38,103 bases of DNA from a virus. Of the stretch, positions 5,239-38,083 are shown piece by piece. Below the pieces are notes generated by a model, which was not told the origin of the DNA, did no database searches, and worked only from the letters and a program-made list of their open reading frames with translations. The first letter of the stretch is position 1; every line of letters starts with the position of its first letter. Position numbers and translations under genes: made by a program. The DNA is taken from UHGV virus genome UHGV-0235457. One strand, 5' to 3'.

Positions 5239-8032
5239 TATCCGGGTCGCTTTCAGCGCCGTTGACAGGCTGACCCGGCCTGCCGAAAACGCCCGCCGCC
5301 TGATGGGGCAGTTTGGTGACTCCATCCAGCGAACGCAGGGGGCGATCAAAAATCTCGAGCGTCAGGCGCGTTCATTTGAGCGCGCCCGCGACGCTGTCAG
5401 TAAAGCGGATGCGGGTATCGTGAAAGCACGACGCCAGCTTAACGCCCTTAATCAGTTACAACGCACGGGTACAGTGCTCAGCGAAAAACAACAAAAGCTG
5501 ATGCAGCAGTTAAGCACCCGGCTTGAACGCCTGAATGAATCGCGCACACGGGAAATTCAGAAAATGCGGGAACTTGGCGGAGAGCTGAAACGCCACGGCA
5601 TTTCCCTGACAGGCAGCGATAACACCATCCAGCAGGCCATCAGACGCACCGAACAGTACAACAACCAGCTTGAACGCGAACGGCAGGCGCTTGCGCGTGT
5701 AACGCGGGCGCGTGAGCGGTATTCGCGCGTGCAGGAAACAGCGGGAAAACTGAAAACAGGTGGTGCGCTGGCAATTGGTGCGGCAGCGGCTGGCGGCTAT
5801 GCTGCCGGGCGTTTTTTGCAGCCTGCGATCGGGTTCGGGAAAGAGATGTCCCGCGTTCAGGCACTGACGCGAATCGACAAAAACAGCCCGCAGTTTAAGG
5901 CGCTGCGTGAGCAGGCGTTAAAACTTGGCTCTGAAACGCAGTTCACCGCAGGCGATGCCGCCAGTGGGCAGGCATTTCTTGCAATGGCTGGCTTCACTCC
6001 GCAGGCCATTCAGGCTGCGCTTCCGGGCGTGCTGAGCATGGCAACGGCTGGCGGCATGGATCTCGGCGAGACGGCGGATATTGGCTCAAATATCCTGACG
6101 CAGTTCGGCCTTTCTGCTGACCAGATGGACCGGGTTGGCGACACGCTCACCGCAGCATTTACCCGTACCAACACTGACCTTCGCGCACTGGGCGAAACCA
6201 TGAAATATGCAGGTCCGGTGGCGGGTAAGCTGGGAATATCGCTGGAGCAGGCCGCAGCGATGGCGGGCGTGCTGGCGAATATGGGTATCAGGGGGAGTGA
6301 TGCCGGGACGGCAATGCGTGCCAGCCTGGCTCGTCTGGCATCACCGCCAAAGGCAGCAGCAGAGGCGCTGAAAGAGCTTGGTGTGGCAGTCTCTGACGCG
6401 AACGGCAAAATGCGCCCGATGGAGGATGTGCTGGCCGACCTTTATAAAGCCACCCGCAAATACGGGGAAGTTGACCGGGTATCGTTCTTTAAGGACATTG
6501 CCGGAGAAGAGGCTTTCACATCGTTTATGGCGCTCGTTGATGCAGCGGGTGACGGTTCCTTACCTAAACTGAGAAAAGAACTTGAAGGTGCGCGCGGTGA
6601 GGCTGAACGCACAGCAAAGGTTATGGCCAACAACCTTGACGGCGATCTGAAATCACTCGGCAGTGCATGGGAAGGGTTGCGCATCCGCATTGCAGATCTG
6701 ATTGACGGTCCGCTGCGTTCTGTCACGCAGTGGCTCACGCGGGTGGTATCAAGGGTGACGGCGCTGGCGCAGGCCCATCCAACACTGACGCGCCAGCTAC
6801 TGATAGCAGGCGGTGCGTTGCTGGCAATGACTGCAACGGTTGGCTCGTTGTCGCTGGCTATTGGTGTGCTTGCTGGCCCGCTGGCAAAACTGCGTCTTGG
6901 TTTTTCTCTCCTGACCGGATCAATGAATGCTGTCAGGGTCCTGCCAGCACTATGGGGAATGGTGACGGGTTCCGTTTCTTTGCTGGGAGGTGCTATCGGG
7001 GCGCTGTTCAGTCCGGTTGGTCTTATCGTGGCTGCGCTTGCCGGAGCTGCCGTTCTTATCTGGAAATACTGGGATCCCATCAGGGCATTTTTTGCCGGGG
7101 TGTTCAGTGGGATTATGGAGCGGCTGGCCCCGTTGCGTGAAACCTTTGAACGGTTTGGCCCTGTTTTTGACGCAATCGGAAGCGGGATCAGCCAGGTGTT
7201 TAACTGGTTTAAATCGCTGCTGTCACCGATGGAGTCCAGCAAGGAAACGTTGGATAAATGTACCAGTGCTGGCGAGATATTCGGTAACGTTCTTGGTGGC
7301 GCGTTACAGCTTGTTCTGACGCCTGCAAAAATGTTGCTGGATACGCTGGCGTGGATACTTGAAAAACTCGGTGTTCTTCCGGATGAAGCGGAAAGGGCGA
7401 GAAAGAAAATCGAAGACGCACAGCGTGCGGCCATTCTTCAGGACAAGGTTGCCTTGCTTCAGGGGGACCTGGCGAAAATCAATCCGCCGAAGCCTGTAGA
7501 AAATGGCAATGGCACCGGAGGTGATAACCCCAAAGACAATAAACCGCTCACAGACAGCAATACCGGTACGCTGCGCAGACTCAGCAAAATTGCTGATAAC
7601 ACAGGTAAGCTGGTTGAGGAGACGAAAAAACGCATTGGCCCCGGCGATATTGTCTTTAAAAACCTGCCCCGAGCACTTGCTGTTCGTGGGGAGTGGCAGG
7701 AGCGGAAGATTGCGCAGGTCAGTAAGCCTGCCCCCGCAATTAATATCACACCCGTGGTCCCGGCTCCGCTGCCTCCGGCGCTGGTCCCTGTTGTTGCGGC
7801 CAGCTCCCGTCCGGTGGCGGAGGCCATACGATCTCCAGTGGCATCAGTTCCTGTAACTTCCCGTAACCGGGAGCCTGTTGCCTCCGGATTTGGTGGTGAA
7901 ATTCATGTTCATCTGCATAACGTTGTTACGCAGAATCCCCGCGAACTGGCGAAACTGGTCGGTGAAATGGTCAGGGCAGAAATGGAACGGCGCGCCCGTG
8001 CCGGGCGTGGCAGTTTTTACGATAAAGATTGA
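5216..8032 (+). CDS. Tail tape measure protein (P2 gpT-like); start ambiguous (GTG 5189, ATG 5216 or 5225)
   Basis: 947-codon ORF, coiled-coil N-terminus, hydrophobic glycine-rich central segment; follows chaperone genes. Confidence 0.85.
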   Translation: MQTMKTLDIRVAFSAVDRLTRPAENARRLMGQFGDSIQRTQGAIKNLERQARSFERARDAVSKADAGIVKARRQLNALNQLQRTGTVLSEKQQKLMQQLSTRLERLNESRTREIQKMRELGGELKRHGISLTGSDNTIQQAIRRTEQYNNQLERERQALARVTRARERYSRVQETAGKLKTGGALAIGAAAAGGYAAGRFLQPAIGFGKEMSRVQALTRIDKNSPQFKALREQALKLGSETQFTAGDAASGQAFLAMAGFTPQAIQAALPGVLSMATAGGMDLGETADIGSNILTQFGLSADQMDRVGDTLTAAFTRTNTDLRALGETMKYAGPVAGKLGISLEQAAAMAGVLANMGIRGSDAGTAMRASLARLASPPKAAAEALKELGVAVSDANGKMRPMEDVLADLYKATRKYGEVDRVSFFKDIAGEEAFTSFMALVDAAGDGSLPKLRKELEGARGEAERTAKVMANNLDGDLKSLGSAWEGLRIRIADLIDGPLRSVTQWLTRVVSRVTALAQAHPTLTRQLLIAGGALLAMTATVGSLSLAIGVLAGPLAKLRLGFSLLTGSMNAVRVLPALWGMVTGSVSLLGGAIGALFSPVGLIVAALAGAAVLIWKYWDPIRAFFAGVFSGIMERLAPLRETFERFGPVFDAIGSGISQVFNWFKSLLSPMESSKETLDKCTSAGEIFGNVLGGALQLVLTPAKMLLDTLAWILEKLGVLPDEAERARKKIEDAQRAAILQDKVALLQGDLAKINPPKPVENGNGTGGDNPKDNKPLTDSNTGTLRRLSKIADNTGKLVEETKKRIGPGDIVFKNLPRALAVRGEWQERKIAQVSKPAPAINITPVVPAPLPPALVPVVAASSRPVAEAIRSPVASVPVTSRNREPVASGFGGEIHVHLHNVVTQNPRELAKLVGEMVRAEMERRARAGRGSFYDKD

Positions 8033-8544: not shown

Positions 8545-8580
8545 AACCGCTAATGGTCAGATTAGCGGTTATTTTGTTTT
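8545..8580. terminator. Bidirectional rho-independent terminator between convergent U and invertase genes
   Basis: ACCGCTAAT-GGTCAG-ATTAGCGGT hairpin; T-rich run on both sides; the plus-strand T-tract overlaps the last invertase codons. Confidence 0.55.
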
Positions 8581-9156
8581 CTGACTCTTCTCTATTGTTC
8601 CGCTTGATTCTCCTGCGGGGTGGTAACGATAAATCGTCGATGTACCAATGCCGTAAATTATTGCCAGTTGTTTTCTGTCGTGACCGTTTTTAATCAGCCT
8701 TGCTATTTGCTCATGCTGTTCTTTTGTCAGCTTCGGTCGACGTCCGCCTGTGCGCCCCCGTGCGCGCGCTGCCGCCAGTCCGGCCAGTGTACGTTCAACA
8801 ATTAATTCACGTTCCATTTCAGCCAGGGCACCCATCACGTGGAAGAAGAAACGCCCCATTGGAGAAGATGTATCTATGCTGTCGGTCAGACTGCGAAAAT
8901 TAATCCCTCGTTCCCGTAGTTCCCCGACGAGAGAAATCAGATGTTTCATGCTTCGCCCGAGGCGATCCAGTTTCCAGACAACCAGCGTGTCACCTTTTTG
9001 AAGGCGCTTTAAAGCGCGTTTTAATCCCGGTCGGTCTGTCTTTGTCCCGCTTAATTTATCTTCAAATATTTGTTCACATCCTGCACAAACAAGAGCGTTT
9101 CGTTGCAGGTCTGTATTCTGGTCATTTGTTGATACCCTTACATAGCCAATCAGCAC
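8569..9156 (-). CDS. Serine-recombinase DNA invertase (Gin/Hin/Cin/Pin family)
   Basis: LIGYVRVSTNDQ N-terminus with catalytic Ser, C-terminal HTH; likely GTG start at 9156 with GGGAGA RBS (ORF track begins at 9174). Confidence 0.9.
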   Translation of the reverse strand: MLIGYVRVSTNDQNTDLQRNALVCAGCEQIFEDKLSGTKTDRPGLKRALKRLQKGDTLVVWKLDRLGRSMKHLISLVGELRERGINFRSLTDSIDTSSPMGRFFFHVMGALAEMERELIVERTLAGLAAARARGRTGGRRPKLTKEQHEQIARLIKNGHDRKQLAIIYGIGTSTIYRYHPAGESSGTIEKSQKTK

Positions 9157-9210
9157 GCTGAATCTCCCGTCCAAAAGCGTAAATCATGCCATGCAGGTCA
9201 GAAACGGCCA

Positions 9211-9236
9211 TTATCTAAAACCTCGGTTTACAGGAA
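9211..9236. other. Invertase crossover site (gix/hix-like), invertase-proximal
   Basis: TTATCTAAAACCTCGGTTTACAGGAA; inverted copy at 12275-12300; close to the Mu gix sequence as I recall it. Confidence 0.8.
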
Positions 9237-10172
9237 ACGGTAAATCAGGCTTCTGGCGCATTACAGAAAAACCAGAACGGCGCAGATATTCCAGGAAAAG
9301 ATACCTTCACAAAAAATATTGGTGCATGTCGCGCTTTTCACAGTGCTATTAGTACAGGGGCAGGGAACTGGACAACGGCACAATTGATTGAATGGCTGGA
9401 TTCTCAAGGGGCATTCAATCACCCATACTGGATGTGCAAATGTTCATGGTCATACGGCAATAATAAAATTATTACCGATACTGGCTGTGGAACTATTCAT
9501 CTTGCAGGTTGCGTTATTGAGGTTATGGGTAATAAAGGTGCCATGACCATCCGTGTAACCACCCCGAGCACTTCCAGCGGTGGCGGAACTACTAATGCAC
9601 AATTTACTTATATAAACCACGGTGGAGATTATGCGCCAGGCTGGCGGCGTGACTACAGTACCAAAAATCAGCAGCCTGCATTTGCTTTAGGGCAGACAGG
9701 AAGCACTGTTGGAAATGACAAAGCTGTTGGATGGAACTCAAATAGCGGCGTTTATAATGCGACTATTAGTGGAGCGTCAACATTGATTCTTCACTTTAAT
9801 ATGAATGCGGGGAGTTGCCCGGCGGTTCAGTTCCGTGTGAATTATAAGAACGGCGGTATTTATTATCGTTCAGCGCGAGATGGTTATGGATTTGAGGCTG
9901 ACTGGTCAGAGTTTTATACCACAACCCGCAAACCCTCTGCGGGAGATGTTGGTGCATATACCAAAGCTGAATCGGATTCTCGCTATGTACGAGATATTCG
10001 CCTGGGCACTCGTGTTGTTCAGACCATGCAAAAAGGCGTGATGTATGAGAAATCAGGTCATGTAATTACAGGGCTTGGCATTGTCGGCGAAGTTGATGGC
10101 GATGATCCGGCAGTATTCAGACCAATACAAAAATACATTAATGGCACATGGTATAACGTGGCGCAGGTGTAA
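9222..10172 (+). CDS. Alternative tail-fibre C-terminal domain cassette, silent in this orientation
   Basis: Frame open from the crossover site; ...LGLQETVNQ... continues in phase with the H constant region after inversion; C-terminus [14 protein letters not shown] parallels the current fibre end. Confidence 0.75.
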   Translation, partial: LGLQETVNQASGALQKNQNGADIPGKDTFTKNIGACRAFHSAISTGAGNWTTAQLIEWLDSQGAFNHPYWMCKCSWSYGNNKIITDTGCGTIHLAGCVIEVMGNKGAMTIRVTTPSTSSGGGTTNAQFTYINHGGDYAPGWRRDYSTKNQQPAFALGQTGSTVGNDKAVGWNSNSGVYNATISGASTLILHFNMNAGSCPAVQFRVNYKNGGIYYRSARDGYGFEADWSEFYTTTRKPSAGDVGAYTKAESDSRYVRDIRLGTRVVQTMQKGVMYEKSGHVITGLGIVGEVDGDDPAVFRPIQKYINGTWYNVAQV

Positions 10173-10175
10173 CTT

Positions 10176-10709
10176 ATGCAGCATTTAAAAAACATTAAGT
10201 CAGGTAATCCAAAAACAAAAGAGCAATATCAGCTAGCAAAGAATTTTGATGTTATCTGGTTATGGTCAGAAGATGGAAAAAATTGGTATGAGGAATTAAA
10301 AAACTTTCAGGAAGATACAATAAAACTGGCTTACACAGTTGAGGGAATAATTGTTGCTATGGACAAGGATGTATCGGCAATTAATCCAGAAGGTTTAAGT
10401 GTCGTTGAGTTGCCTGATATTACAGCAAATCGCCGGGCTGATATTTCGGGTAAATGGATGTTCAAAGATGGCGTAGTGATAAAGCGAACTTATACCGAGG
10501 AGGAACAGAGGCAGCAGGCAGAGAATGAAAAGCAAAGCCTGTTGCAACTTGTCAGGGATAAAACCCAGCTATGGGGCTCACAGCTACGGCTGGGCATCAT
10601 TTCCGACGAGAATAAACAAAAATTAACCGAGTGGATGCTCTATGCGCAGAAAGTCGAATCTACAGACACCTCCAGCCTGCCAGTAACATTTCCCGAACAA
10701 CCTGAATGA
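10176..10709 (+). CDS. Tail fibre assembly chaperone, partner of the alternative cassette
   Basis: 177 aa; N-terminus [11 protein letters not shown] and central DITANRRAD motif parallel the paralog at 10738-11265. Confidence 0.8.
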
Positions 10710-22187: not shown

Positions 22188-23939
22188 ATGATTCAGGACG
22201 CTTTTGTGCGCCAGCGTGCGCGTCAACTTTACTGGCAGGGTTATCCGCCCGCAGAAATATCACGTCTGATGGGAATAAACCCGAACACGATTTATGCGTG
22301 GAAAAAACGCGACCAGTGGGATGAAACGCCACCCGTGCAGCGTGTCACGCAGTCCATCGATGCGCGCCTCATCCAGCTCACTGAAAAACAGAATAAAACA
22401 GGTGGTGACTTCAAGGAAATAGACCTGCTGACCCGGCAGCTTAAAAAACTGCATGATGGCCAGCCGGATGCGGCGGCCACAGGAAAGAAAGGCCGGGCGA
22501 AAAAACTCAAAAATCATTTCACGCCGGAACAGATTGCCGCACTGCGGGAAAAAATCATCAGCAGGCTGGAGTGGCATCAGCGGGGCTGGTTTGACTCCCT
22601 GACCCTTTGCAGGGAAGCCGGGATACGTAACAGGATGATCCTGAAATCCCGACAGATTGGGGCGACCTGGTATTTTGCACAGGAAGCTCTGCTGATGGCG
22701 CTGCGTGACGATGTGGCGCAACCTTACCAGCGTAACCAGATTTTTTTGTCTGCTTCGCGTCGTCAGGCGTTCCAGTTTAAAAGCATTATTCAGAAGGCTG
22801 CGGCTGAAGTTGATGTGGAGCTGAAAGGGGGCGATAAAATCATCCTCTCCAACGGCGCAGAGCTGCATTTTCTCGGCACTTCTGCTGCGTCGGCACAGTC
22901 CTATACGGGCAATTTTTATTTTGATGAATTTTTCTGGGTCAGTCGCTTTGCTGAACTGCGCAAGGTGGCTGGCGCTATGGCAACCCTCAGCGGACTGCGG
23001 CGCACCTACTTCTCCACGCCATCCACCGAAACGCACGAGGCATACGCCTACTGGAACGGCGACCGCTGGAACGAGAAAAAGGCCTCGCATAAACGCCAGC
23101 GTTTTTCTGTTGACTGGAAAACGCTGCATAACGGGCTTATCTGCCCTGACCGGACGTGGCGGCAAATTGTCACGCTGGAAGATGTGGTTAATCACGGCTG
23201 GAAACACACCGATATTGACGAAATCCGTGATGAAAACACCGAAGACGAGTTCCTCAATCTCTATATGTGTGAGTTTGTCCGCGAAGGGGAATCGGCATTT
23301 AACCTGAATATCCTGATTGGCTGCGGTGTTGACGGATACGACGACTGGAAAGACTGGAAACCTTTTGCTCCCCGCCCGATGGGGAATCGGGCGGTATGGA
23401 TTGGGTATGACGCAAACGGCAGCAGTGGCAACGGCGACAGCGGCGCTGTGTCCGTGGTGGTTCCTCCGGCTGTTCCTGGTGGCCGTTTTCGAACGGTGGA
23501 GACGCGACGCGTTCAGGGGCTGGAGTTTGAAGAACAGGCCAGAGTCATTGAAGAGTTCACGTGTCGCTACAACGTGGAACACATCGGCATTGATGTGACG
23601 GGCGGGAACGGGGAGGCTGTTTATCAGATAGTGAAACGGTTTTTCCCTGCTGCTATTCCGTACACCTTCACGCTGTCATCAAAACGGTCGCTGGTACTGA
23701 AAATGCTGCAAATAATGCGTGCCGGGCGGTGGGAATACGATCGCGCCGAACGCGAGCTGGTCGCGGCCTTTAACGCCGTGCGTAAGGTGAAAACACCGGG
23801 CGGCTTTATCACTTACGAAACGGACCGCGCGAGGGGGATCAGCCACGGCGACCTTGCGTGGGCAACCATGCTTGCTGTCATTAACGAACCGATTGGCGGC
23901 GAAGGAGAAAACGAGCGTTTCACGGTTATGGAGTTCTGA
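22188..23939 (+). CDS. Terminase large (ATPase) subunit gpP-like
   Basis: 583 aa; GGGGGAG RBS. Confidence 0.9.
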   Translation: MIQDAFVRQRARQLYWQGYPPAEISRLMGINPNTIYAWKKRDQWDETPPVQRVTQSIDARLIQLTEKQNKTGGDFKEIDLLTRQLKKLHDGQPDAAATGKKGRAKKLKNHFTPEQIAALREKIISRLEWHQRGWFDSLTLCREAGIRNRMILKSRQIGATWYFAQEALLMALRDDVAQPYQRNQIFLSASRRQAFQFKSIIQKAAAEVDVELKGGDKIILSNGAELHFLGTSAASAQSYTGNFYFDEFFWVSRFAELRKVAGAMATLSGLRRTYFSTPSTETHEAYAYWNGDRWNEKKASHKRQRFSVDWKTLHNGLICPDRTWRQIVTLEDVVNHGWKHTDIDEIRDENTEDEFLNLYMCEFVREGESAFNLNILIGCGVDGYDDWKDWKPFAPRPMGNRAVWIGYDANGSSGNGDSGAVSVVVPPAVPGGRFRTVETRRVQGLEFEEQARVIEEFTCRYNVEHIGIDVTGGNGEAVYQIVKRFFPAAIPYTFTLSSKRSLVLKMLQIMRAGRWEYDRAERELVAAFNAVRKVKTPGGFITYETDRARGISHGDLAWATMLAVINEPIGGEGENERFTVMEF

Positions 23940-24985
23940 TGAGCAGAAAAAATAAAAAAGTGCGAATGAGTTCACGCATTGATCTCGCTGATGCGCTCAG
24001 GAAAGAATCATCGCTCAGTGCATTCACATTTGATGGTCCTTATCGCCTGACCGGGCATGACCTGCTGGACAATATGTACTGTGCTGATAACGGGCGGTGG
24101 TATGAAACCCCGGTGGACTGGTACGGTCTGGCAAGAGCAGCCCGGCAAACGTCCTGGCATCAGTCTGCGCTTTACTTTAAGCGCAATGTATTACTCGGTT
24201 GCTACATCCCGCACCCGCTGCTTTCCCGGCAGGATTTCTCGGCGCTGGCGCTGGACTGGTTTGTGTTCGGTAACGCATTCCTTGAGCTTAGAAGCAATAT
24301 GCTCGGCGAACCGCTTAAATTACGGCACGCACTGGCGAAATACATGCGACGCGGAAGCGATCTTGAATCATGGTGGTATGTGCAGGATGGCAAGGACGCG
24401 TTCCAGTTTCGCCCTGGCAAAGTGTGCCACCTGATAAATCCGGATATTAACCAGGAAATTTACGGCATGCCGGAATATCTTGGCGCATTACTCTCGGCCA
24501 GCCTGTCTCATTCGGCGGACATGTTCAGAAAACTGTATTACGACAATGGATCCCACGCCGGGTGCATCATCTACATCGGAGCAGCGCAGGTAAACCGCGA
24601 AAGCATGGACTCCCTGAAAGAAACGTTACAGGGTGCGCGTGGTGGTGGCGCGTTTAAAAACGTGCTCATCCATGCGCCCAACGGGGGCAAAGAGGGGGTG
24701 CAAATTTTGCCGTTCCAGCAGATCACCGCAAAGGATGAGTTCATGAATGTTAAGGCGGCATCCCGTGATGATGTGCTGGCTGCGCACCGCGTTCCGCCGC
24801 AACTGATGGGGGCGATGCCGGGCGAAAAAAGTGCGTTTGGTGATGTGGAGAAGGCCGCGCGGGTTTACGCAATTAACGAGCTGATGCCCGTCATGGAGGC
24901 CATGAAGCACATCAATGACTGGCTTGGCGAAGAGGTGATCCGCTTTAACCCTTACGCACTGTTAGACACCCAGCCCACATCCTGA
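23939..24985 (+). CDS. Portal protein gpQ-like
   Basis: 348 aa; start overlaps terminase stop (TGATG). Confidence 0.85.
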   Translation: MSRKNKKVRMSSRIDLADALRKESSLSAFTFDGPYRLTGHDLLDNMYCADNGRWYETPVDWYGLARAARQTSWHQSALYFKRNVLLGCYIPHPLLSRQDFSALALDWFVFGNAFLELRSNMLGEPLKLRHALAKYMRRGSDLESWWYVQDGKDAFQFRPGKVCHLINPDINQEIYGMPEYLGALLSASLSHSADMFRKLYYDNGSHAGCIIYIGAAQVNRESMDSLKETLQGARGGGAFKNVLIHAPNGGKEGVQILPFQQITAKDEFMNVKAASRDDVLAAHRVPPQLMGAMPGEKSAFGDVEKAARVYAINELMPVMEAMKHINDWLGEEVIRFNPYALLDTQPTS

Positions 24986-25476: not shown

Positions 25477-25818
25477 CTATAGCTTTGATGCAGGCTGGGC
25501 TAGATGTAAGGGTTGGACATACCAGCCTTTTGATAACCAACTCTCTGCAACATCTTTACTCCTTGTTATTGCTGGTATTCCGATGCCGTTATTTACATGC
25601 ATCCATGCTACTGGCTCTGCTTCCAGCGATGCCAGCACAATTCGTGCCAGCTCACGCACTACTTCCGGGGGCGCGTAACGGTCATTCAGGTCATCCCACA
25701 GGCGTAGCATGTTATCGCTACCAGGGTGAACATCCTCGTTAGTTCCGGCAAGCGCACTAATAACCTCATCGGCTGCCTCAATAATTTTCAGAGCTTGTTC
25801 TCTGGTAATAGTGGTCAT
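25477..25818 (-). CDS. Hypothetical protein, last gene of accessory operon
   Basis: 113 aa; 4-bp overlap with upstream gene. Confidence 0.55.
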   Translation of the reverse strand: MTTITREQALKIIEAADEVISALAGTNEDVHPGSDNMLRLWDDLNDRYAPPEVVRELARIVLASLEAEPVAWMHVNNGIGIPAITRSKDVAESWLSKGWYVQPLHLAQPASKL

Positions 25819-26024
25819 TTGTTAATCCTCAAAACTTTATGCCCGGGCGCAAAAGCACGCGTTTTGTCTTGACTTATTCGCCACCCGTCTTTACGGGCCT
25901 CTTTTGCACAGCCAGCCCATGACGTACCGATATATTCACCAAAGTCTGGCGTTTGATATTTACCATTTGTACACTGGCGACAATCACAATAGAGATGCAT
26001 GGTGTAACTTGCGGCAATAGCCAT
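25815..26024 (-). CDS. Hypothetical small Cys-containing protein (CxCxxC)
   Basis: 69 aa; translationally coupled to neighbours. Confidence 0.5.
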   Translation of the reverse strand: MAIAASYTMHLYCDCRQCTNGKYQTPDFGEYIGTSWAGCAKEARKDGWRISQDKTRAFAPGHKVLRINK

Positions 26025-26025
26025 A

Positions 26026-26340
26026 TCAGTCTCCTTTGATGCCAGTGTTTACAACCTGACAAGCCTCTTTGAGCACCCAGTCAACAGCGTCTTTCCATGC
26101 TCCGGTTTCGGCTGGCGGATTCTCACGCTTTACCAGTTCATAGAAATGTACTGCTCTAACCAGTCCATCTGACGGTTTTGCCTGTAGTGCAGCCTGAGCT
26201 ATGCGGTATGCCTGGAGCATACGGGCGTCGTTGATATCCATTCCGAACGGAATTTCTGATGATTGTGACTCTGCATCTTCAAGCCTGGCAATTTCTTTAC
26301 GTAAGAAGTATTTCAACTCTTGTTTCTGTTTTCTGTTCAT
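26026..26340 (-). CDS. Hypothetical protein
   Basis: 104 aa; overlaps upstream gene stop. Confidence 0.5.
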
Positions 26341-26669
26341 GCGTTTTTTTCCTTTTTGTCTGTCACTTCTTTCCTGATAATTTCATTGCACAAATCCACG
26401 CACTCATTGCAGATGTAAACAGACGGTCCGGCAATCACCTTTGTGACTTCGTACTGGGATTTATTGCAGAAACTGCAATAAACCGTCTTCTCGCCTGAAG
26501 TCCATGTTTTGCTGGTTTCGCCAGACATCAGTTGTTTGAGGTCTTTTTCACGACGAAGAACTATCTGGCCACATTCAGCTATTTTTTGGATGTTGACATT
26601 TTCTTCTTTCGCCAGCGCTTCCATCCGCTCAATCAGTCGCTGCGCTTTTTCTCTGTCAATGTGTTGCAT
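26337..26669 (-). CDS. Protein with C-terminal ClpX-type zinc-binding domain
   Basis: [38 protein letters not shown] closely parallels the ClpX N-domain C4 motif as recalled; AAGGGGGA RBS. Confidence 0.75.
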
Positions 26670-26732
26670 TGTGTCCCCCTTGTTTATGCTCCCGGGTTAA
26701 AGTCATCAGGGCGGATGCGCCCTGATGTTGTG

Positions 26733-27044
26733 TTATTCGGGAAATAACGCCCGGATATTTCCGGCCATCTGACTGGTTATCTGTGCGGCTGATACTGGCT
26801 GTGACGCGGGGCGTTCTGTCCTGGTTTGTGTCATTGATAACGCCTCATCATCAGCCCATGCAGCCAGTCGGTAAGCCTCTGCCGGATTCATTTTCAGTAG
26901 TGCCAGCCCGGCCAGAAAAGCCACGCGTTGACCACTTTTGCGGGCTTCTGGTGTAAGGCTGTCCAGCCAGGCGCATGCTTCGCCTTCGTTCTTGACGGCG
27001 GCGGGCTTCAGATAGAAACTTATCCGTCTGGTTGGTGTCGTCAT
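26733..27044 (-). CDS. ParR-like centromere-binding adaptor
   Basis: Internal ATG 27044 with AAGGAG; RRISFYLKP, LDSLTPEARK, FLAGLAL and C-terminal IRALFPE parallel plasmid R1 ParR as recalled. Confidence 0.6.
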   Translation of the reverse strand: MTTPTRRISFYLKPAAVKNEGEACAWLDSLTPEARKSGQRVAFLAGLALLKMNPAEAYRLAAWADDEALSMTQTRTERPASQPVSAAQITSQMAGNIRALFPE

Positions 27045-27048
27045 TGGT

Positions 27049-28008
27049 TTACTCCTTGTCCATTGCGTACAGCCCATTAACCAGAGCAAACTGTGGCACC
27101 CCGTCCGCGATGAAAGTCGCATTAACTCCGCAGGCTTCGCGGATAGCGGGTGCCACAATCTCTGCCCCGCCACCGACAACCATCACCCGCCCGTAACCCG
27201 AAAAACCCGCCAGCGCGCGGATCACGCGTTGTTTCAGTGTTTCTTCCTTTTCACGAATAACCGCCATCAGGCTGGCGTAATGCGCGTCATTGTGGATGTG
27301 CTGGCGCAGCCAGGCTTCATCATGGCGATGTTCGATAATGGTATTGGCGATGTGGTGACTGGTACGCATACCGTTAGTGGCCATCACCGACAGTACGGCA
27401 TCGGCCATCAGGGAAACGCCTACGTGTGGATCGCAAAACACCTGGCTGATACCTGCCAGTTGTCCCTGAACCTTTGCCACATCCAGCGTGGTTCCGCCTA
27501 AATCCACAATCAGCAGGGATTCAAACGGACTCATGTCAGCCAGTGCTTTAAAACCAGCCGGTATGGATTCAGGCATAACCCGTACGTTACGGATAGTGAA
27601 TGCTTTTCCGTTCTGGTACGCCACCGGGCGCATGACGTTTGCTTTTTTGCGGTTGATGTTGGCTATGTCCGGCTGTGCGTTTGTGTCGAAATACTCGCTC
27701 AGTGGCAGGGTGACAACCACATCCACCTCCTGTGGCGTGATGCCTGATTTGACCAGCGCGTGATGAATGGCAATGACATTCACATCGCTGTACTGGTATT
27801 GCGTATCGGTCGTCTGGACAAAGCGATCGCTGACCGGATCAAAACCATAGCGCACGCCATCAAGCATGTAGTTCGCGGGCTGCGTGCCACCGAACGGCGC
27901 AGACCATTCCGACTTGAAGCTGTTCGGGCTGATGGCGTTGCGGCGTTCGCCGTTCTCAGTCCATGCCAGCTTGATGTTGGTGGAGCCGTCGTCGATACAA
28001 ATTTTCAT
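27049..28008 (-). CDS. ParM/StbA-like actin-family ATPase
   Basis: IDDGSTNIKL (phosphate 1), DLGGTTLD (phosphate 2), VVGGGA (adenosine) motifs; 319 aa; N-terminus parallels R1 ParM as recalled. Confidence 0.75.
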   Translation of the reverse strand: MKICIDDGSTNIKLAWTENGERRNAISPNSFKSEWSAPFGGTQPANYMLDGVRYGFDPVSDRFVQTTDTQYQYSDVNVIAIHHALVKSGITPQEVDVVVTLPLSEYFDTNAQPDIANINRKKANVMRPVAYQNGKAFTIRNVRVMPESIPAGFKALADMSPFESLLIVDLGGTTLDVAKVQGQLAGISQVFCDPHVGVSLMADAVLSVMATNGMRTSHHIANTIIEHRHDEAWLRQHIHNDAHYASLMAVIREKEETLKQRVIRALAGFSGYGRVMVVGGGAEIVAPAIREACGVNATFIADGVPQFALVNGLYAMDKE

Positions 28009-28032: not shown

Positions 28033-30924
28033 TTAATCGGTTACAGGATTTTTAAATCCCGCTTTTGCCTGTTTTGTGCGCGCTTCATATATCGCGGCAC
28101 GTTTTTGCTCATTTACGGGATTTGTGAGTCCCGTTTCTGTCTGTTTTTTGTTTCCACTGGTCAGGCTACCCCGCAGCAGGTCTGCTTTGCGGCGGGCGCG
28201 TTCAGTGGTTTCACTGATTCTCTGTGCGTGCTCTGCGTCACGGATGGCGCGCAGCATGTCAGAAAGCATGGTAACGGGGGTTTTCATGGTGTTCTGGCCC
28301 TGCTGAAGTGTGGATGCCAGGCGTGCGGTGGCTTCGGGGTCTGATGCCCCCAGCTGTTCCAGATAGCTGGCGACCGGGTTATGGCGGATCTCCGTGCTGC
28401 TTACGCCGTGGTTACGGCTCAGACGCTGCCAGAGCTGCGTGATCCGGCTGTCCGGTCGGGTATCCGGTTTGCGTACAATTTCAAATCCCTGAGGTGCAAT
28501 GATGCTGCCGTCAACGTACAGACTGCCGCCCCGTAACAGGTGCTGCATCTGCTGTTCACCGATATGCAGGCCGAGAGATTCAGCAGACTCCCGCCATTCT
28601 TTAGCGAGTAATTCGTGGTTATCAGGCAAAGGCCGCTGCTGTTTGCGGCTCTGTGTCCAGCTCTGCATTTCATCACTGCTGTTTTTTGCCTGTTTGTCAC
28701 GAAGCGAACGCATCAGCGCCCGGCGTTCGTGCCGTTTCAGTGAGCGCATCCATTCGTTCACTTCAACGCCGTCAAGGAGCTGCGGCCATGGTGCTGGCCG
28801 TTCTTCCGGCTGTTCTGTCCCGTTGTTGTCCGTTTCCTGTACACGGGGACAGTTATTGCCACGAGTCCAAGGGGCGGCAGGGCCGCCCTGAAGGTCAAAA
28901 CCATTTTCGCGGGCACTGTCTTCCGCTTCCGGTTTGCGTCTTACCAGCTTCCAGTTATCCGGATGCGTGCACACACGGGAGGATTCCCCGATGAGTGGTG
29001 ACCAGATCCCGTAAATCTGTACGCTCTGTTCGCCGTAATCGTTTAGCTCATCGGCGAGGTCGTAGGCGGTGCGAATCAGGTAGTCTTTGCGTGGAACAAG
29101 TACGCCGCCCTGTTTCTCTATGTAGGTGGCAAAACATCCGGCATCAGCGGCGGCAAGAACCGCATCCATTGCGTCATCCTTTAGCCGTTGCGGGCCTTCC
29201 GGGTTGCGTGCCATCTGGCTGGCAAGGCGGCGCAGTTCACGCCATACCTGGCGGGAGGGGATGCCAAAGAACTGGAACTGGCGGACCCGGTGAAGGCGCG
29301 CCCAGCCGATGGCGCGTTCCACGCTCTCGGCCATTGATTTTCCGGTTTCGTGGTCAACGCGTGGCTTGCCCGTTTTCGGGTCGATGCCATCCACGGCACG
29401 GCTGTCCAGGTTTTTCCCGATGTAGGTGGCGATGTAGCTGGTCGGTGTGCCTTTTGAGCCGTCGACGTACTCCGCCTTAAAGCGTGGGGTAATATCATCA
29501 CCCAGCTCGTGACGATCTTCCTGAATGGCAATATCGCGGGTGTGGGACACAATAGTGTCGATTTCTTCCGGATGAGCAAAGACCATCATATGCCAGTGCA
29601 CGGTGCCGTCATGGTGAGGCTCCACCGTGCGGATGCCATACCAGCGCAGGCCGTCGCGGTTCAGTTTCTTGCGGACCGCCGCAAAAAACGTGTTAACCAG
29701 GTAATCGCTGGAGTCGCGCATGGTGGCCCCGTTCCATTTGGGATTCGGATGACCGTTCTCTGTTGTGGCGTGGTATTTTGACGGGCAGGTGACAGTCAGA
29801 AACACCGCTTTGTCGCCACGGGCTTCGGCCAGAAGTTCCAGCCCCTTCATGGTGGCCATCATTTCTGCCTTACGGTGAACCGGGTTACTTACTCCCGCGT
29901 AATACACTGTCTCGAGATCAATCGTGAACCCATCTTCGTTTTCCAGCATGAAACTTTTCAGGAAATCGCGTGTTTTCTCGCGCTGTGCGCGAAACTCGCT
30001 TAATGCGTCCTGGCTCAGATAGGGCGATGTTTTTCTGGAAACCAGACAGGCGGCGCGGAGTTGTTCTTCTCTCCACTCGCAACGTAACAGCCACAGTTTG
30101 CGTTTCCACCATTCCGCACAGGTCAGGCGAAGGATTGCGCCCGGCAGCAGCTCCGTGTCCGGTCCGTTCCTCCGGTCTTTATCTGTTGTCAGTGCGTCAT
30201 AATGTGGAGGCATGATGTGCAGGTGTAACGCCATGCGGGCCAGCATCTGATACGCCTTCAGCGTTACATCCATGGTCAGTTCGCCATCGGTCGCGCCAAA
30301 GCCATCGCAGAGTTTTTCGAAGGTGCTGCTGAACATCGCCGCCGTCATGGTGGCCAGCGTCTGTATCTGGTGTTTGTTGAGCTGCGGCAGGTAAAGCAAA
30401 TCGTCCAGGCGTTCGCGTCCGGCAAGGGAGCGATAACCCGGTGTCAGCCAGCGCCCGTCAGTGCGATCCAGACGTTCGAATATTTTGCGCAGGGTTCCGC
30501 GTGTATAGCGTTCCGCCTGCCAGCTCTTTTTGCCTTTCTGACGATCGGCTTCCTGCTTCTTGCGCAGGAAAGAGAGGTGGCGGCTCAGAGGTTCTCGCAG
30601 ATAAACGGGAAGCACCTTCAGTGTGGCAAAGGCACGGGCTACCGGGTCTTGTTCTGTTGCCCGGCGCTTACTGATGATGCTCTGTGCCAGCTTTTCACGC
30701 TGTCCGGCTTCCTCAAGGGATGCCATGAGTTTTTTACCCATGGCGGATTGTGCGAAAAAGGCTTCTTCCTTCGCTTCCTGTTCTTCCTGTGCCCTTTTGT
30801 CCGCCTCAAGGTAGTAACGGATGGCGCGTTGCAGGTCGGTTTCAGTTTCCTGCCTGCGCTCCGTAAATCTGGCCGGATCAATAGCTGGTCGTGGTTCATT
30901 CCAGCTCCATGCAAACGCACTCAT
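28033..30924 (-). CDS. Rolling-circle replication initiator (P2 gpA-like); alternative GTG start at 30951
   Basis: HWHMMVF (HUH-like) and YIATYIGK motifs; ATG 30924 overlaps upstream stop (ATGA). Confidence 0.85.
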   Translation of the reverse strand: MSAFAWSWNEPRPAIDPARFTERRQETETDLQRAIRYYLEADKRAQEEQEAKEEAFFAQSAMGKKLMASLEEAGQREKLAQSIISKRRATEQDPVARAFATLKVLPVYLREPLSRHLSFLRKKQEADRQKGKKSWQAERYTRGTLRKIFERLDRTDGRWLTPGYRSLAGRERLDDLLYLPQLNKHQIQTLATMTAAMFSSTFEKLCDGFGATDGELTMDVTLKAYQMLARMALHLHIMPPHYDALTTDKDRRNGPDTELLPGAILRLTCAEWWKRKLWLLRCEWREEQLRAACLVSRKTSPYLSQDALSEFRAQREKTRDFLKSFMLENEDGFTIDLETVYYAGVSNPVHRKAEMMATMKGLELLAEARGDKAVFLTVTCPSKYHATTENGHPNPKWNGATMRDSSDYLVNTFFAAVRKKLNRDGLRWYGIRTVEPHHDGTVHWHMMVFAHPEEIDTIVSHTRDIAIQEDRHELGDDITPRFKAEYVDGSKGTPTSYIATYIGKNLDSRAVDGIDPKTGKPRVDHETGKSMAESVERAIGWARLHRVRQFQFFGIPSRQVWRELRRLASQMARNPEGPQRLKDDAMDAVLAAADAGCFATYIEKQGGVLVPRKDYLIRTAYDLADELNDYGEQSVQIYGIWSPLIGESSRVCTHPDNWKLVRRKPEAEDSARENGFDLQGGPAAPWTRGNNCPRVQETDNNGTEQPEERPAPWPQLLDGVEVNEWMRSLKRHERRALMRSLRDKQAKNSSDEMQSWTQSRKQQRPLPDNHELLAKEWRESAESLGLHIGEQQMQHLLRGGSLYVDGSIIAPQGFEIVRKPDTRPDSRITQLWQRLSRNHGVSSTEIRHNPVASYLEQLGASDPEATARLASTLQQGQNTMKTPVTMLSDMLRAIRDAEHAQRISETTERARRKADLLRGSLTSGNKKQTETGLTNPVNEQKRAAIYEARTKQAKAGFKNPVTD
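28041..28138. repeat. Two imperfect ~38-bp direct repeats, each with an internal near-palindrome, in the 3' end of the replication gene just upstream of the ParM-like gene
   Basis: TTACAGGATTTTTAAATCCCGCTTTTGCCTGTTTTGTG vs TTACGGGATTTGTGAGTCCCGTTTCTGTCTGTTTTTTG. Confidence 0.45.
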
Positions 30925-31310
30925 GGCTGGTATCCCGTCACGCGCTGCCACTCCTGCGAGAAGAGGGCGGAAAGGCGGTTAAATTCAGCGGTGTATTCAC
31001 TCAGCGAGGCACACCCGCCAGCAGTGCGATGCGCCAGCATTGCTGCAAATACGGAGGCCGGGGAGTCGTAATACGCCAGCAGTGATTCGCCGTGCGGTGT
31101 CAGGCAGTGCAACGCCAGTCCGTGTGGTGTGAAATCCACGCGGTAGCAGTCGTCTACTGTGAAATAAAGGGTGTCTGCATTCTCCGGTTTTGTGGTGCGT
31201 GCTCTGTTGTCACGACCACGGATGTAGAGATCAAATAACCCCTGAAGAACGGGAGCCAGACGGGTGTCCTGTGTGCGCACCCATCTTGTGAAGTCATGAG
31301 CGTCAATCAT
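30921..31310 (-). CDS. Hypothetical early protein
   Basis: 129 aa; translationally coupled to the replication gene. Confidence 0.55.
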   Translation of the reverse strand: MIDAHDFTRWVRTQDTRLAPVLQGLFDLYIRGRDNRARTTKPENADTLYFTVDDCYRVDFTPHGLALHCLTPHGESLLAYYDSPASVFAAMLAHRTAGGCASLSEYTAEFNRLSALFSQEWQRVTGYQP

Positions 31311-35743: not shown

Positions 35744-36745
35744 ATGTCGGTTCGTAAGATTCCATCAGGTAAATGGCTTTGCGAATGTTATCCCTACGGG
35801 GCATCGGGAAAACGCATTCGTAAACAGTTTGCGACAAAAAGTGAGGCGCTCTCTTATGAGCGCCGTTTAATGAATAGTAGAGTTGGAGACGAGTTTCAAG
35901 ATGGTTCTGGTCCTCGTCTTTCTGAGTTGATTGCTCGTTGGTTTGAGATGTACGGTAAAACCTTGTCCTCTGGTGCAGAGCGCAAAGTCAAACTTGAGGC
36001 GATTTGTTCCAGGCTGGGAGATCCATTTGCTTCTCAGTTTGACAAAAATATGTTTGCCACTTATCGGGAAAGAAGGCTATCAGGAGAATGGAATCCCAAG
36101 GGGAAGAAAAAACTTAGTGAAGCAACCGTTAATCGCGAGCAGTCATATCTACATGCTGTTTTTGCCGAACTGAAGCGCCTTGGGGAGTGGTCTGGTGAAA
36201 ACCCCCTGACTGGTATTCGCAAGTTTCGTGAGGAAGAAAAGGAACTGGCGTTTCTGTATGTAGATGAGATTGAACGCCTTCTGATTGCGTGTGATGAGTC
36301 ACGGAATAAAGATTTGGGGGTTGTTGTCCGTATTGGGCTTGCGACTGGTGCTCGGTGGAGTGAAGCAGAAGGATTAAAGCAATCTCAAGTACTGCCCGGT
36401 CGAATCACATTTGTTAAAACTAAAGGAAAGAAGAACCGCACTGTACCGATTTCACCTCAATTGCAGGCTATGCTTCCCAAAAAACGAGGAGCGCTATTTT
36501 CACCATGTTATGAGGCTTTTGACGCTGCAATTAAGAGAGCGAAGATCGAGCTTCCTGATGGGCAATTAACTCATGTGCTACGTCACACGTTTGCCAGTCA
36601 TTTTATGATGCGGGGCGGAAATATTCTTGTGTTGCAAAAAATACTGGGGCATAGCGATATAAAAATGACTATGCGTTATGCGCATTTTGCTCCAGGTCAT
36701 TTAGAGGCTGCTGTTGAATTGAACCCTTTTGACAATAGAGGGTAA
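35744..36745 (+). CDS. int: Tyrosine recombinase integrase, P2-like
   Basis: 333 aa; GKRIRKQF...SEA N-terminus, HVLRHTFASHF and MRYAHF motifs; adjacent to right att repeat. Confidence 0.9.
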   Translation: MSVRKIPSGKWLCECYPYGASGKRIRKQFATKSEALSYERRLMNSRVGDEFQDGSGPRLSELIARWFEMYGKTLSSGAERKVKLEAICSRLGDPFASQFDKNMFATYRERRLSGEWNPKGKKKLSEATVNREQSYLHAVFAELKRLGEWSGENPLTGIRKFREEEKELAFLYVDEIERLLIACDESRNKDLGVVVRIGLATGARWSEAEGLKQSQVLPGRITFVKTKGKKNRTVPISPQLQAMLPKKRGALFSPCYEAFDAAIKRAKIELPDGQLTHVLRHTFASHFMMRGGNILVLQKILGHSDIKMTMRYAHFAPGHLEAAVELNPFDNRG

Positions 36746-37036: not shown

Positions 37037-38083
37037 TCATTTTCTCTGGCCACCAACTACGGGCACTACTTTAACTTTTCGGTCATAGGCAGCTGTCTGT
37101 CGTGGGTTCTTATGCCCGGAAATTGCTTGCTTCTCTTCCAGGCTGCCTTCCAGATCAGAGATACCTTTTGCTTTCAGATCATGAAATGTGAAGTCTATTT
37201 GCAGATGAGGATATTTTTCCTGTGCTGCCGCTTTGACATCACGCCAACGAGAGTTAAAACCATCACGGGTATACTTGCCACCGGTAGTTTGATGAATCAC
37301 AAACAGGCTACTGATTCCCGTTTTTAATGGCAGAGAACGAGCCAGAGCTATCGCTTTCTGCAGACGAGGCGACCAGGCTTTGATTTGCTTAACGCCGGTT
37401 TTTCCCTGACGAATGTAGATCCCGGAATCGAACAGCTGGTCTTTCTGCAATGAAAGTACATCACTCTGTCTGGCCACGCATAAGTAGGCAATCTCCATTG
37501 CTACGCGAACAACATCAGGAGACACTTCATAAACGGCCTGATATTCTTCATCCGTAATATAGCGTTCGCGAGCTTTCTCTTTAAACTGTTTAACTCCCTG
37601 ACAAGGATTCCTCTGAACATAACCTCGTTCATAACCCCAACGGAATACCCGGGACATAAAGCTTTTTTCCCTGTTTGCCTGAGTTCGGCTTGATAAACCG
37701 CGTTGATCCATATAGCGCCGAATATGTTCAGGTTTGATTTTATCCGGGTCGATCTTCCCGAAGACAGGTAGAACTTTTCCGGAATATTTTGTGTAGTCTT
37801 TCCTGGTTTCGACTGCCAAATCCATAAAATCAGGGGAGGTCATGAATTGTTCCGTGAGCGCCTGAAAAGTATTTCTTTCTTTTTCGTCACCGACCGCTTT
37901 TTCATATGCCAGCCATACGGCTGATCGTGGCGCATCCAATGCGCACAGGCGTATCGCTTTGTTATCTTTATTCCTGAATTCGTAGGCCGCTTTGCCCTGG
38001 TAAACACGAGGCGGCATCCAGTTATCTGCTGGGTTCTTTCTCTTTCCGGCCATTAAATATTGCTCCAAAATCAGGTTCATCAT
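37037..38083 (-). CDS. Tyrosine recombinase integrase of a second integrative element
   Basis: 348 aa; HDLKAKG and AAYDR catalytic-region motifs; lies outside the right att repeat, 3' end facing the tRNA fragment. Confidence 0.8.
   Translation of the reverse strand: MMNLILEQYLMAGKRKNPADNWMPPRVYQGKAAYEFRNKDNKAIRLCALDAPRSAVWLAYEKAVGDEKERNTFQALTEQFMTSPDFMDLAVETRKDYTKYSGKVLPVFGKIDPDKIKPEHIRRYMDQRGLSSRTQANREKSFMSRVFRWGYERGYVQRNPCQGVKQFKEKARERYITDEEYQAVYEVSPDVVRVAMEIAYLCVARQSDVLSLQKDQLFDSGIYIRQGKTGVKQIKAWSPRLQKAIALARSLPLKTGISSLFVIHQTTGGKYTRDGFNSRWRDVKAAAQEKYPHLQIDFTFHDLKAKGISDLEGSLEEKQAISGHKNPRQTAAYDRKVKVVPVVGGQRK

Follow-up and report, generated by a model that had tools for sequence, protein, structure and literature searches.

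A gene at positions 26337..26669 (minus strand) of the viral genome UHGV-0235457 encodes a 110-residue protein in which a predicted helical hairpin is followed by a zinc-binding domain (ZBD) of the ClpX type. The window, i.e. the whole 38,103-nucleotide stretch analysed here, is a P2-like prophage of the P88 type (Peduoviridae, Xuanwuvirus). The gene is already annotated and catalogued, yet functionally unexplored. We tentatively propose that its product is a free-standing, dimeric decoy of the ClpX N-domain, which might divert adaptors and substrates from ClpXP; this is the best of the readings weighed here, although we consider it possible rather than probable.

The gene and its two-domain product

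The gene is complete, as judged from the ORF list, Pfam, and its membership of phrog_6797 and the P88 gp19 family. The 110-codon ORF starts with ATG, a Shine-Dalgarno sequence AGGGGG (26675..26680, minus strand; read from the sequence) lies 5 nt 5' of this codon, and its stop codon shares an ATGA with the start codon of the following gene, orf104. Residues 1-106 align with positions 5-107 of the 107-position phrog_6797 profile (E=2.1e-58), a full-length match to a family of unknown function. The protein is 100% identical in amino-acid sequence to its homologue in PhiR44_2 and 96% identical to P88 gp19, consistent with the prophage setting that the earlier note had assumed. In GenBank and RefSeq records of P88, D6, and many E. 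coli genomes, the family bears a widespread misannotation, 'carboxylate--amine ligase', while a newer RefSeq name is 'ClpX C4-type zinc finger protein'.

Between parR and the ZBD gene, a gap of 63 bp contains a perfect hairpin with a 10-bp stem, CATCAGGGCG GATG CGCCCTGATG (26704..26727), which was found in a terminator scan and is also conserved in P88. The hairpin is terminator-like on the non-coding (plus) strand only, and no T run follows it on the coding (minus) strand. Inspection of the upstream regions by eye revealed neither a LexA-type box nor a conserved promoter, and a consensus promoter scan found fewer promoter-like sites than in shuffled sequence.

An AlphaFold2 (AF2) model of the 110-residue protein has a mean pLDDT of 77.6 and consists of an N-terminal hairpin, a disordered linker, and a zinc ribbon with a C-terminal helix. 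The ZBD comprises residues 62-102 (26364..26486, minus strand), as delimited by Pfam, PDB search, alignment, and the AF2 model. Consistent with the earlier note, which had recognised a ClpX ZBD in the protein's C-terminal portion, residues 64-99 match Pfam PF06689 (zf-C4_ClpX) with E=6.8e-18 and 64.7 bits against a cut-off of 27. A PDB sequence search returned ClpX entries only, with the E. coli ZBD at the top; specifically, phmmer aligned residues 58-104 without gaps to 1OVX (6.9e-20) and 2DS5/6/8 (2.5e-19). The domain is identical to E. coli ClpX (5' end of clpX, locus L006) at 31 of 41 residues. The predicted zinc ribbon adopts a treble-clef fold with a C-terminal helix and superimposes on 2DS5/2DS8 at 0.7 Å over 40 residues. 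Taken together, these matches go well past what chance would produce.

The four cysteine ligands, whose presence the earlier note had singled out for checking by careful alignment, are all retained. C65, C68, C87, and C90 (minus-strand codons 26475-26477, 26466-26468, 26409-26411, and 26400-26402) correspond to ClpX C14, C17, C36, and C39, and these positions are invariant in alignments A1 and A4 as well as in 30 of 30 family ZBDs. The protein is not itself a ClpX: against the ClpX equivalogs TIGR00382 and NF003745 it covers model positions 6-54 only and scores 51 bits (TIGR00382 cut-off, 370.75). It ends 8 residues past the ZBD helix, and the AAA+ module is absent.

Residue conservation was compared between 30 distinct family ZBDs and 8 ClpX ZBDs. 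In ClpX numbering, the family keeps C14, S15, F16, C17, K19, Q21, V24, I28, A29, G30, V33, I35, C36, E38, C39, V40, C43, I46, and I47. F16 and I46 line the ClpX pocket used by trigger factor, λ O, SspB, and RssB (PMC7804408). The pocket for trigger factor overlaps the λ O site and the SspB/RssB site, and mutation of pocket residues abolishes the effect of trigger factor (PMC7804408). In the phage family, F16 is present in all 30 ZBDs, position 46 is I or V in 29, and I47 is present in 29. Other ClpX-invariant positions are changed or variable, namely L11, G18, H22, E23, R25, P31, S32, D37 (mostly N), D45, R48, and E49. The D6-type clade departs further, with the AGPSVY hairpin replaced by AGD(A/N)VF and L42 by A, V, or D. 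Judged from these alignments, the ligand pocket is conserved, while part of the ClpX-specific surface is not.

Natural variants also occur at non-ligand positions where the ClpX sequences compared show little or no variation, including Y85C (ClpX Y/F34), C94F, and C94Y (both ClpX C43). Alleles on pAVS-type plasmids carry Y64C, which creates a CCSFC motif. These variants were found among L026, L030-L032, L037, and P0003.

The N-terminal hairpin (residues 6-48; 26526..26654, minus strand) is predicted to consist of two helices, residues 6-23 and 27-48, with pLDDT of 82-94. It is connected to the ZBD by a variable linker (residues 49-61; 26487..26525, minus strand), which is predicted to be disordered (pLDDT <50 for residues 52-59) and differs in length and sequence among homologues. 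The earlier note had described the N-terminal region as unrelated sequence attached to the ZBD, a description that needs revision. A profile of the N-terminal 58 residues searched against 1.84e9 representative proteins gave 18 matches. All intact matches have the arrangement N-domain, variable linker, and ZBD, and no other type of zinc ribbon follows the N-domain; the remaining matches are copies damaged by truncation or frameshift, or coiled coils of low complexity. Thus, the N-terminal ~50 residues form a conserved, family-specific domain that intact proteins carry only in fusion with the ZBD, in front of it. Searches of the N-domain against Pfam (E<=10) and of its profile against PDB returned noise only and no significant homologue.

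The first 18 residues of the protein (26616-26669) resemble the N terminus of the product of a nearby gene, orf113 (MTTITREQALKIIEAADE, 25477-25818), and the likeness is reminiscent of the leaders that ead/Ea22-like accessory genes have in common. It is not significant in hhalign, which gave probabilities of 15.6% for orf113 and 0.1% for orf104 in comparisons of the N-domain with these neighbours.

Origin, prophage setting, and spread

The ZBD is 76% identical to that of E. coli ClpX in protein and 66% identical in DNA. The same codon is used at only 11 of the 31 identical residues, and the differences include codon-family switches at two serines (AGY/TCN) and one arginine (AGG/CGC). In a sensitive blastn search of 5426 complete E. 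coli genomes with the ZBD gene, clpX was never matched. A recent capture from E. coli clpX is therefore ruled out by the DNA identity, the scrambled codons, and the blastn search.

Both domains are constrained. Among P2-type lineages, pairwise dN/dS is 0.06-0.32 in both domains. Using 50 distinct gene sequences from two clades in IMG/VR, we obtained pN/pS of 0.25 for the N-domain and 0.30 for the ZBD in the P88 clade, and of 0.34 and 0.55, respectively, in the phage-plasmid clade. Positive or relaxed selection on the phage-plasmid ZBD, suggested by a dN/dS of 0.9-1.3 among 3 sequences, was dropped as not robust when 20 sequences gave the pN/pS of 0.55; the apparent excess is partly explained by reassorted N-domain and ZBD variants. 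These values indicate that purifying selection has held the ZBD ClpX-like despite saturation at synonymous positions.

The gene lies in the order gpA-ParM-ParR-ZBD-orf104-orf69-orf113-(cos)-Q. The left border of this interval is the P2 gpA-type replication endonuclease gene (28033..30951, minus strand; Pfam Phage_GPA, E=2.5e-131), which is followed by genes for a ParM/StbA actin-like segregation ATPase (27049..28008, minus strand; Pfam StbA_N, E=1e-81, and ParM_N, E=1e-68) and a ParR/StbB partition protein (26733..27044, minus strand; Plasmid_stab_B, E=6e-24, and P88 gp18 annotation), the latter directly upstream of the ZBD gene. Downstream are three small genes of unknown function, orf104 (26026..26340, minus strand; ORF list, match to phrog_660/26213), and orf69 and orf113 (together 25477..26024, minus strand; phrog_926 and phrog_60/660). 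The right border is the convergent portal gene gpQ (23939..24985, plus strand), identified by P88 annotation, tblastn, and context.

An obligate partnership with orf104 was rejected, as this gene is missing from a third of P88-clade loci and from all other contexts, and one with ParMR was rejected, as many P2-type loci lack it. The neighbouring genes change between the P88-type, other P2-type, D6-type, and SSU5-type contexts, with none conserved throughout, which suggests that the ZBD gene works alone or with host factors.

In every P2-like locus examined, the ZBD gene is located between gpA and the portal gene Q, with ParMR present in some loci and absent in others. These loci span gpA identities of 31-97% and portal identities of 29-99%. 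In P2, this cos-proximal gpA-gpQ interval is a hotspot that includes old and tin; in E. coli it has been shown to store anti-phage systems, with 1,650 arrangements of genes (PMC9122126; PMC13586616). An arrangement 'StbA + Plasmid_stab_B + zf-C4_ClpX + hypothetical' appears in the supplementary hotspot table, and in the table text covered here 'clpx' occurs 43 times and 'stba' 489 times (PMC9122126; PMC13586616). The defence models of PADLOC-DB v2 include no family that matches the ZBD protein at E<=0.01; among its neighbours, the only match is a marginal one of orf104 to PDC-M28C (E=0.008, 13 bits).

The P88-type allele was found by blastn on the chromosome of 112 of 5426 complete E. coli genomes (~2%). 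Some part of a 2.7-kb query covering 25400-28100 matches in 2,085 of 5,426 such genomes, including O157:H7. Among the matches listed, most span only the 3' end of gpA, ParM, and ParR, and at least 80% of the query is matched in only 48 genomes. The ZBD gene thus behaves as variable cargo against a gpA/ParMR backbone. In three loci (L075, L076, and L079), gpA and ParM are 94-97% and 96-98% identical to those of the window, and the ZBD alleles in the same slot are only 37-50% identical; the portal of L079 is only 29% identical to that of the window. This pattern indicates allele replacement and mosaicism at the locus.

Full-length homologues occur in E. coli, E. albertii, Shigella, and Salmonella. 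A scan of genome contigs for wider taxa was dominated by chromosomal clpX, with no family member among the matches listed. About 94 plasmid records carry the D6-type allele, a full-length homologue of roughly 50% identity; these plasmids are 85-111 kb long and non-mobilisable, and they are P1/D6-like and SSU5-like phage-plasmids. Their ZBD genes are embedded in arrays of small, overlapping, same-strand accessory genes (ead/Ea22-like, DUF4752). Across these contexts, the ZBD gene moves among phages as a single autonomous gene.

In a Salmonella-type P2-like prophage (L013), the ZBD gene is flanked by two 71-nt direct repeats (5891-5961 and 6390-6460) that are 97% identical. The repeat, CCGCTCGCCGCAAGCCCTGATTA..GAGCCGCACGGCGGCGAGTCTGTCAGGGCGAGGAAGCGGAATTACT, contains an internal inverted repeat, and it resembles the P2 cos core. 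A degenerate upstream copy is present in L012 and a downstream copy only in L008 and L010; the repeat is absent from the window. It may mark how the ZBD cassette was inserted.

Other features of the window lie outside the hotspot or concern its partition genes. Although the prophage is of the integrated type (integrase at 35744-36745), it bears plasmid-type ParM/ParR genes (26733-28008) directly after gpA. A second tyrosine integrase gene (Phage_integrase and Phage_int_M; 37037-38083) starts ~300 bp past the prophage integrase, an arrangement suggestive of another integrative element, or what is left of one, at the same site; the window contains no tRNA gene. A Hin/Cin-type serine invertase gene (Resolvase and HTH_7; 8569-9174) adjoins a tail-fibre C-terminal segment (gp37_C; 9384-10172) and a tail-fibre assembly gene (10176-10709). 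Together, these genes (8569-10709) suggest an invertible host-range switch.

Possible role as a ClpX docking-domain decoy

ClpXP controls sigma-S, SOS components, antitoxins, FtsZ, and the replication proteins of λ and Mu. What follows on the activity of the ZBD protein is drawn from ClpX biochemistry. The phage ZBD would dimerise as in ClpX, and pairing of the hairpins would probably reinforce the dimer. The soluble dimer would offer a ClpX-like ligand pocket without the AAA+ motor, and could capture the XB-type tails of adaptors (SspB, RssB, or UmuD-like), N-domain-dependent substrates (λ O- or MuA-like), or both. Delivery of the captured proteins to ClpXP would be competitively lowered, while N-domain-independent degradation, e.g. 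direct recognition of ssrA, would continue. The N-terminal hairpin might add avidity through oligomerisation or bind a second partner, and its self-association would favour homodimers over heterodimers with ClpX. Possible beneficiaries are the phage's own proteins, the physiology of the lysogen (e.g. through stabilisation of sigma-S), and the exclusion of competing ClpX-dependent phages.

Studies of ClpX itself define what an isolated ZBD can do. Purified ClpX ZBD added in trans inhibits RssB-dependent degradation of sigma-S, the ZBD dimer cross-links to one RssB, and SspB and RssB compete for the ZBD (PMC7226468). Isolated His-ZBD(1-52) binds XB peptides with KD of 35-82 nM (PMC12373786), and degradation of λ O requires the ClpX ZBD (PMC7804408). 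The recombinant ZBD is thus a motor-less dimeric competitor, which is the behaviour proposed for the phage protein; the former is a laboratory fragment, whereas the latter is the product of a natural, selected gene and has an extra domain. A natural motor-less ZBD that has kept the pocket would be expected to soak up adaptor tails and N-domain-dependent substrates by competition.

Titration or heterodimerisation, as suggested in the earlier note, becomes more credible because the ZBD has been kept ClpX-like by purifying selection despite saturated synonymous sites, because the residues of the pocket for SspB, RssB, trigger factor, and λ O are retained across the 30 family ZBDs, and because the ClpX ZBD inhibits in trans (PMC7226468) and binds XB peptides (PMC12373786). 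On the other hand, G18, H22, E23, R25, P31, S32, D45, and R48, all invariant in ClpX, are free to vary in the family. Taken together with the changes in the D6-type clade, this relaxation implies that ligand specificity may not match that of ClpX, or may have disappeared in some members. A pure decoy also leaves the constant second conserved domain unexplained, and it would have to be made in roughly stoichiometric amounts. Of the interpretation offered in the earlier note, then, the domain assignment holds and both titration and heterodimerisation with host ClpX are kept as conditional readings; its example, protection of phage replication or regulatory proteins from degradation, is not supported, as no client was identified.

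Heterodimerisation would give the protein a different role. The phage ZBD would pair with a ZBD protomer of ClpX and tether the hairpin to the ClpX hexamer, where the hairpin would either serve as a new adaptor, bringing in a specific cargo to be degraded or remodelled, or, as a plug, perturb the three ZBD dimers. Cross-pairing is sterically plausible, given the ClpX-identical core and helix positions (C14-C17, I28-G30, V33, I35, V40, C43, I46, and I47), and a conserved second domain, always present and flexibly linked, is what one would expect of an adaptor; a 303-residue phage ORF (L089) likewise has a C-terminal ZBD after a different N-terminal region. We nevertheless consider this reading unlikely. 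The ClpX ZBD reportedly forms a constitutive dimer of great stability (Wojtyra 2003, as cited in PMC7226468), so subunit exchange should be slow; a self-associating hairpin would favour homodimers; and no cargo candidate adjoins the ZBD gene in any context examined. A generic scaffold is the least likely of the readings weighed here. The ZBD would then only dimerise the hairpin, which would be the real effector (e.g. a small regulator), and there would be no link to ClpXP. Treble-clef zinc fingers commonly serve as modules for dimerisation and interaction, which fits such a role, as do the relaxed ClpX-invariant surface residues and an N-domain at least as constrained as the ZBD (pN/pS 0.25-0.34 versus 0.30-0.55). 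However, a scaffold needs neither 76% identity to host ClpX after synonymous saturation nor the retention of exposed F16, I46, and I47 in ~30 diverged sequences, and no other type of zinc ribbon has replaced the ZBD after the N-domain.

The remaining alternative invokes the same interference with the ClpX N-domain, selected as anti-phage exclusion that blocks ClpX-dependent superinfecting phages, e.g. of Mu type. The transpososome of Mu-type phages must be remodelled by ClpX, and Mu depends on the ClpX N-domain. The gpA-gpQ slot occupied by the gene in every P2-like locus examined is the hotspot of old and tin (PMC9122126; PMC13586616), the StbA, Plasmid_stab_B, and zf-C4_ClpX arrangement is listed in the hotspot table, and alleles of 37-50% identity in one slot of near-identical backbones are typical of conflict genes. 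Against this, PADLOC gave no match, the hotspot also carries non-defence cargo such as ParMR, and pN/pS stays under 1, the larger sample giving no hint of positive selection. We regard exclusion as the selected function as quite unlikely.

Returning to the decoy, we give a similarly low probability to its most far-reaching form, a dedicated docking-domain decoy of temperate enterobacterial phages and phage-plasmids, in which a domesticated ClpX N-domain would reprogram the substrate choice of ClpXP through sequestration of adaptors or N-domain-dependent clients. When carried in the P2 defence hotspot, it would be a single-gene factor for exclusion or counter-defence. For example, it would block ClpX-dependent phages such as Mu, or stabilise sigma-S or antitoxins that are labile to ClpXP. 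If the decoy reading is true, the protein would be the first natural ClpXP inhibitor to work by mimicry of the protease's own recognition domain, and such mimicry would be a new strategy among the ways in which phages tamper with host proteolysis. A decoy could account for a gene that recurs as cargo in the P2 defence hotspot and in phage-plasmids of the P1/SSU5 type. It would also provide a ready genetic tool to switch off only the adaptor-dependent branch of ClpXP.

Comparison with known systems and other phage ZBD proteins

The closest relative of the phage ZBD is that of ClpX (PF06689; 1OVX, 2DS5-2DS8), with which it shares the pattern and spacing of the C4 ligands and the pocket residues F16, I46, and I47. 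The two proteins differ in three respects: the phage protein lacks the AAA+ module, its ZBD is C-terminal and follows a hairpin that is absent from ClpX, and the ClpX-invariant residues G18, H22, R25, and D37 are changed or variable in the phage family.

We tentatively place the protein among phage-encoded modulators of host AAA+ proteases, acting by domain mimicry. Known modulators of AAA+ proteases include T4 PinA and T7 Gp4.5 (Lon), λ CIII (FtsH), and SPO1 Gp53 (ClpC), and IraD, IraM, and IraP are anti-adaptors of RssB. Similarly to the role proposed here, they are small proteins, several of them phage-encoded, that alter what an ATP-dependent protease of the host degrades; unlike the ZBD protein, to which they have no sequence relationship, none of them, to our knowledge, copies the substrate-docking domain of the protease itself. 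With its N-domain giving no significant Pfam or PDB match, the protein shows no homology to SspB, RssB, or IraD/M/P. In the literature searched, no natural protein is described that inhibits ClpX by competing for the ligands of its N-domain.

Short ORFs that encode little more than a ZBD are found in other phages, although a full-text literature search returned no paper on phage or plasmid ZBD-only proteins. They include phrog_12435 ('protease'), phrog_5259, a 65-residue 'Clp protease' of Pseudomonas phage PP9W2, and an ORF of Caulobacter phage Cr30. These proteins do not have the hairpin N-domain, which is restricted to the enterobacterial family. In IMG/VR contigs, 461 ZBD-encoding stretches were confirmed, some of which are full-length clpX. 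The 303-residue ORF mentioned above (L089:3087-3254; IMG/VR 3300047160_015042) also comes from this collection, and its ZBD matches Pfam with E=3e-18. The ZBD is therefore used as a C-terminal module by phage proteins of more than one architecture.
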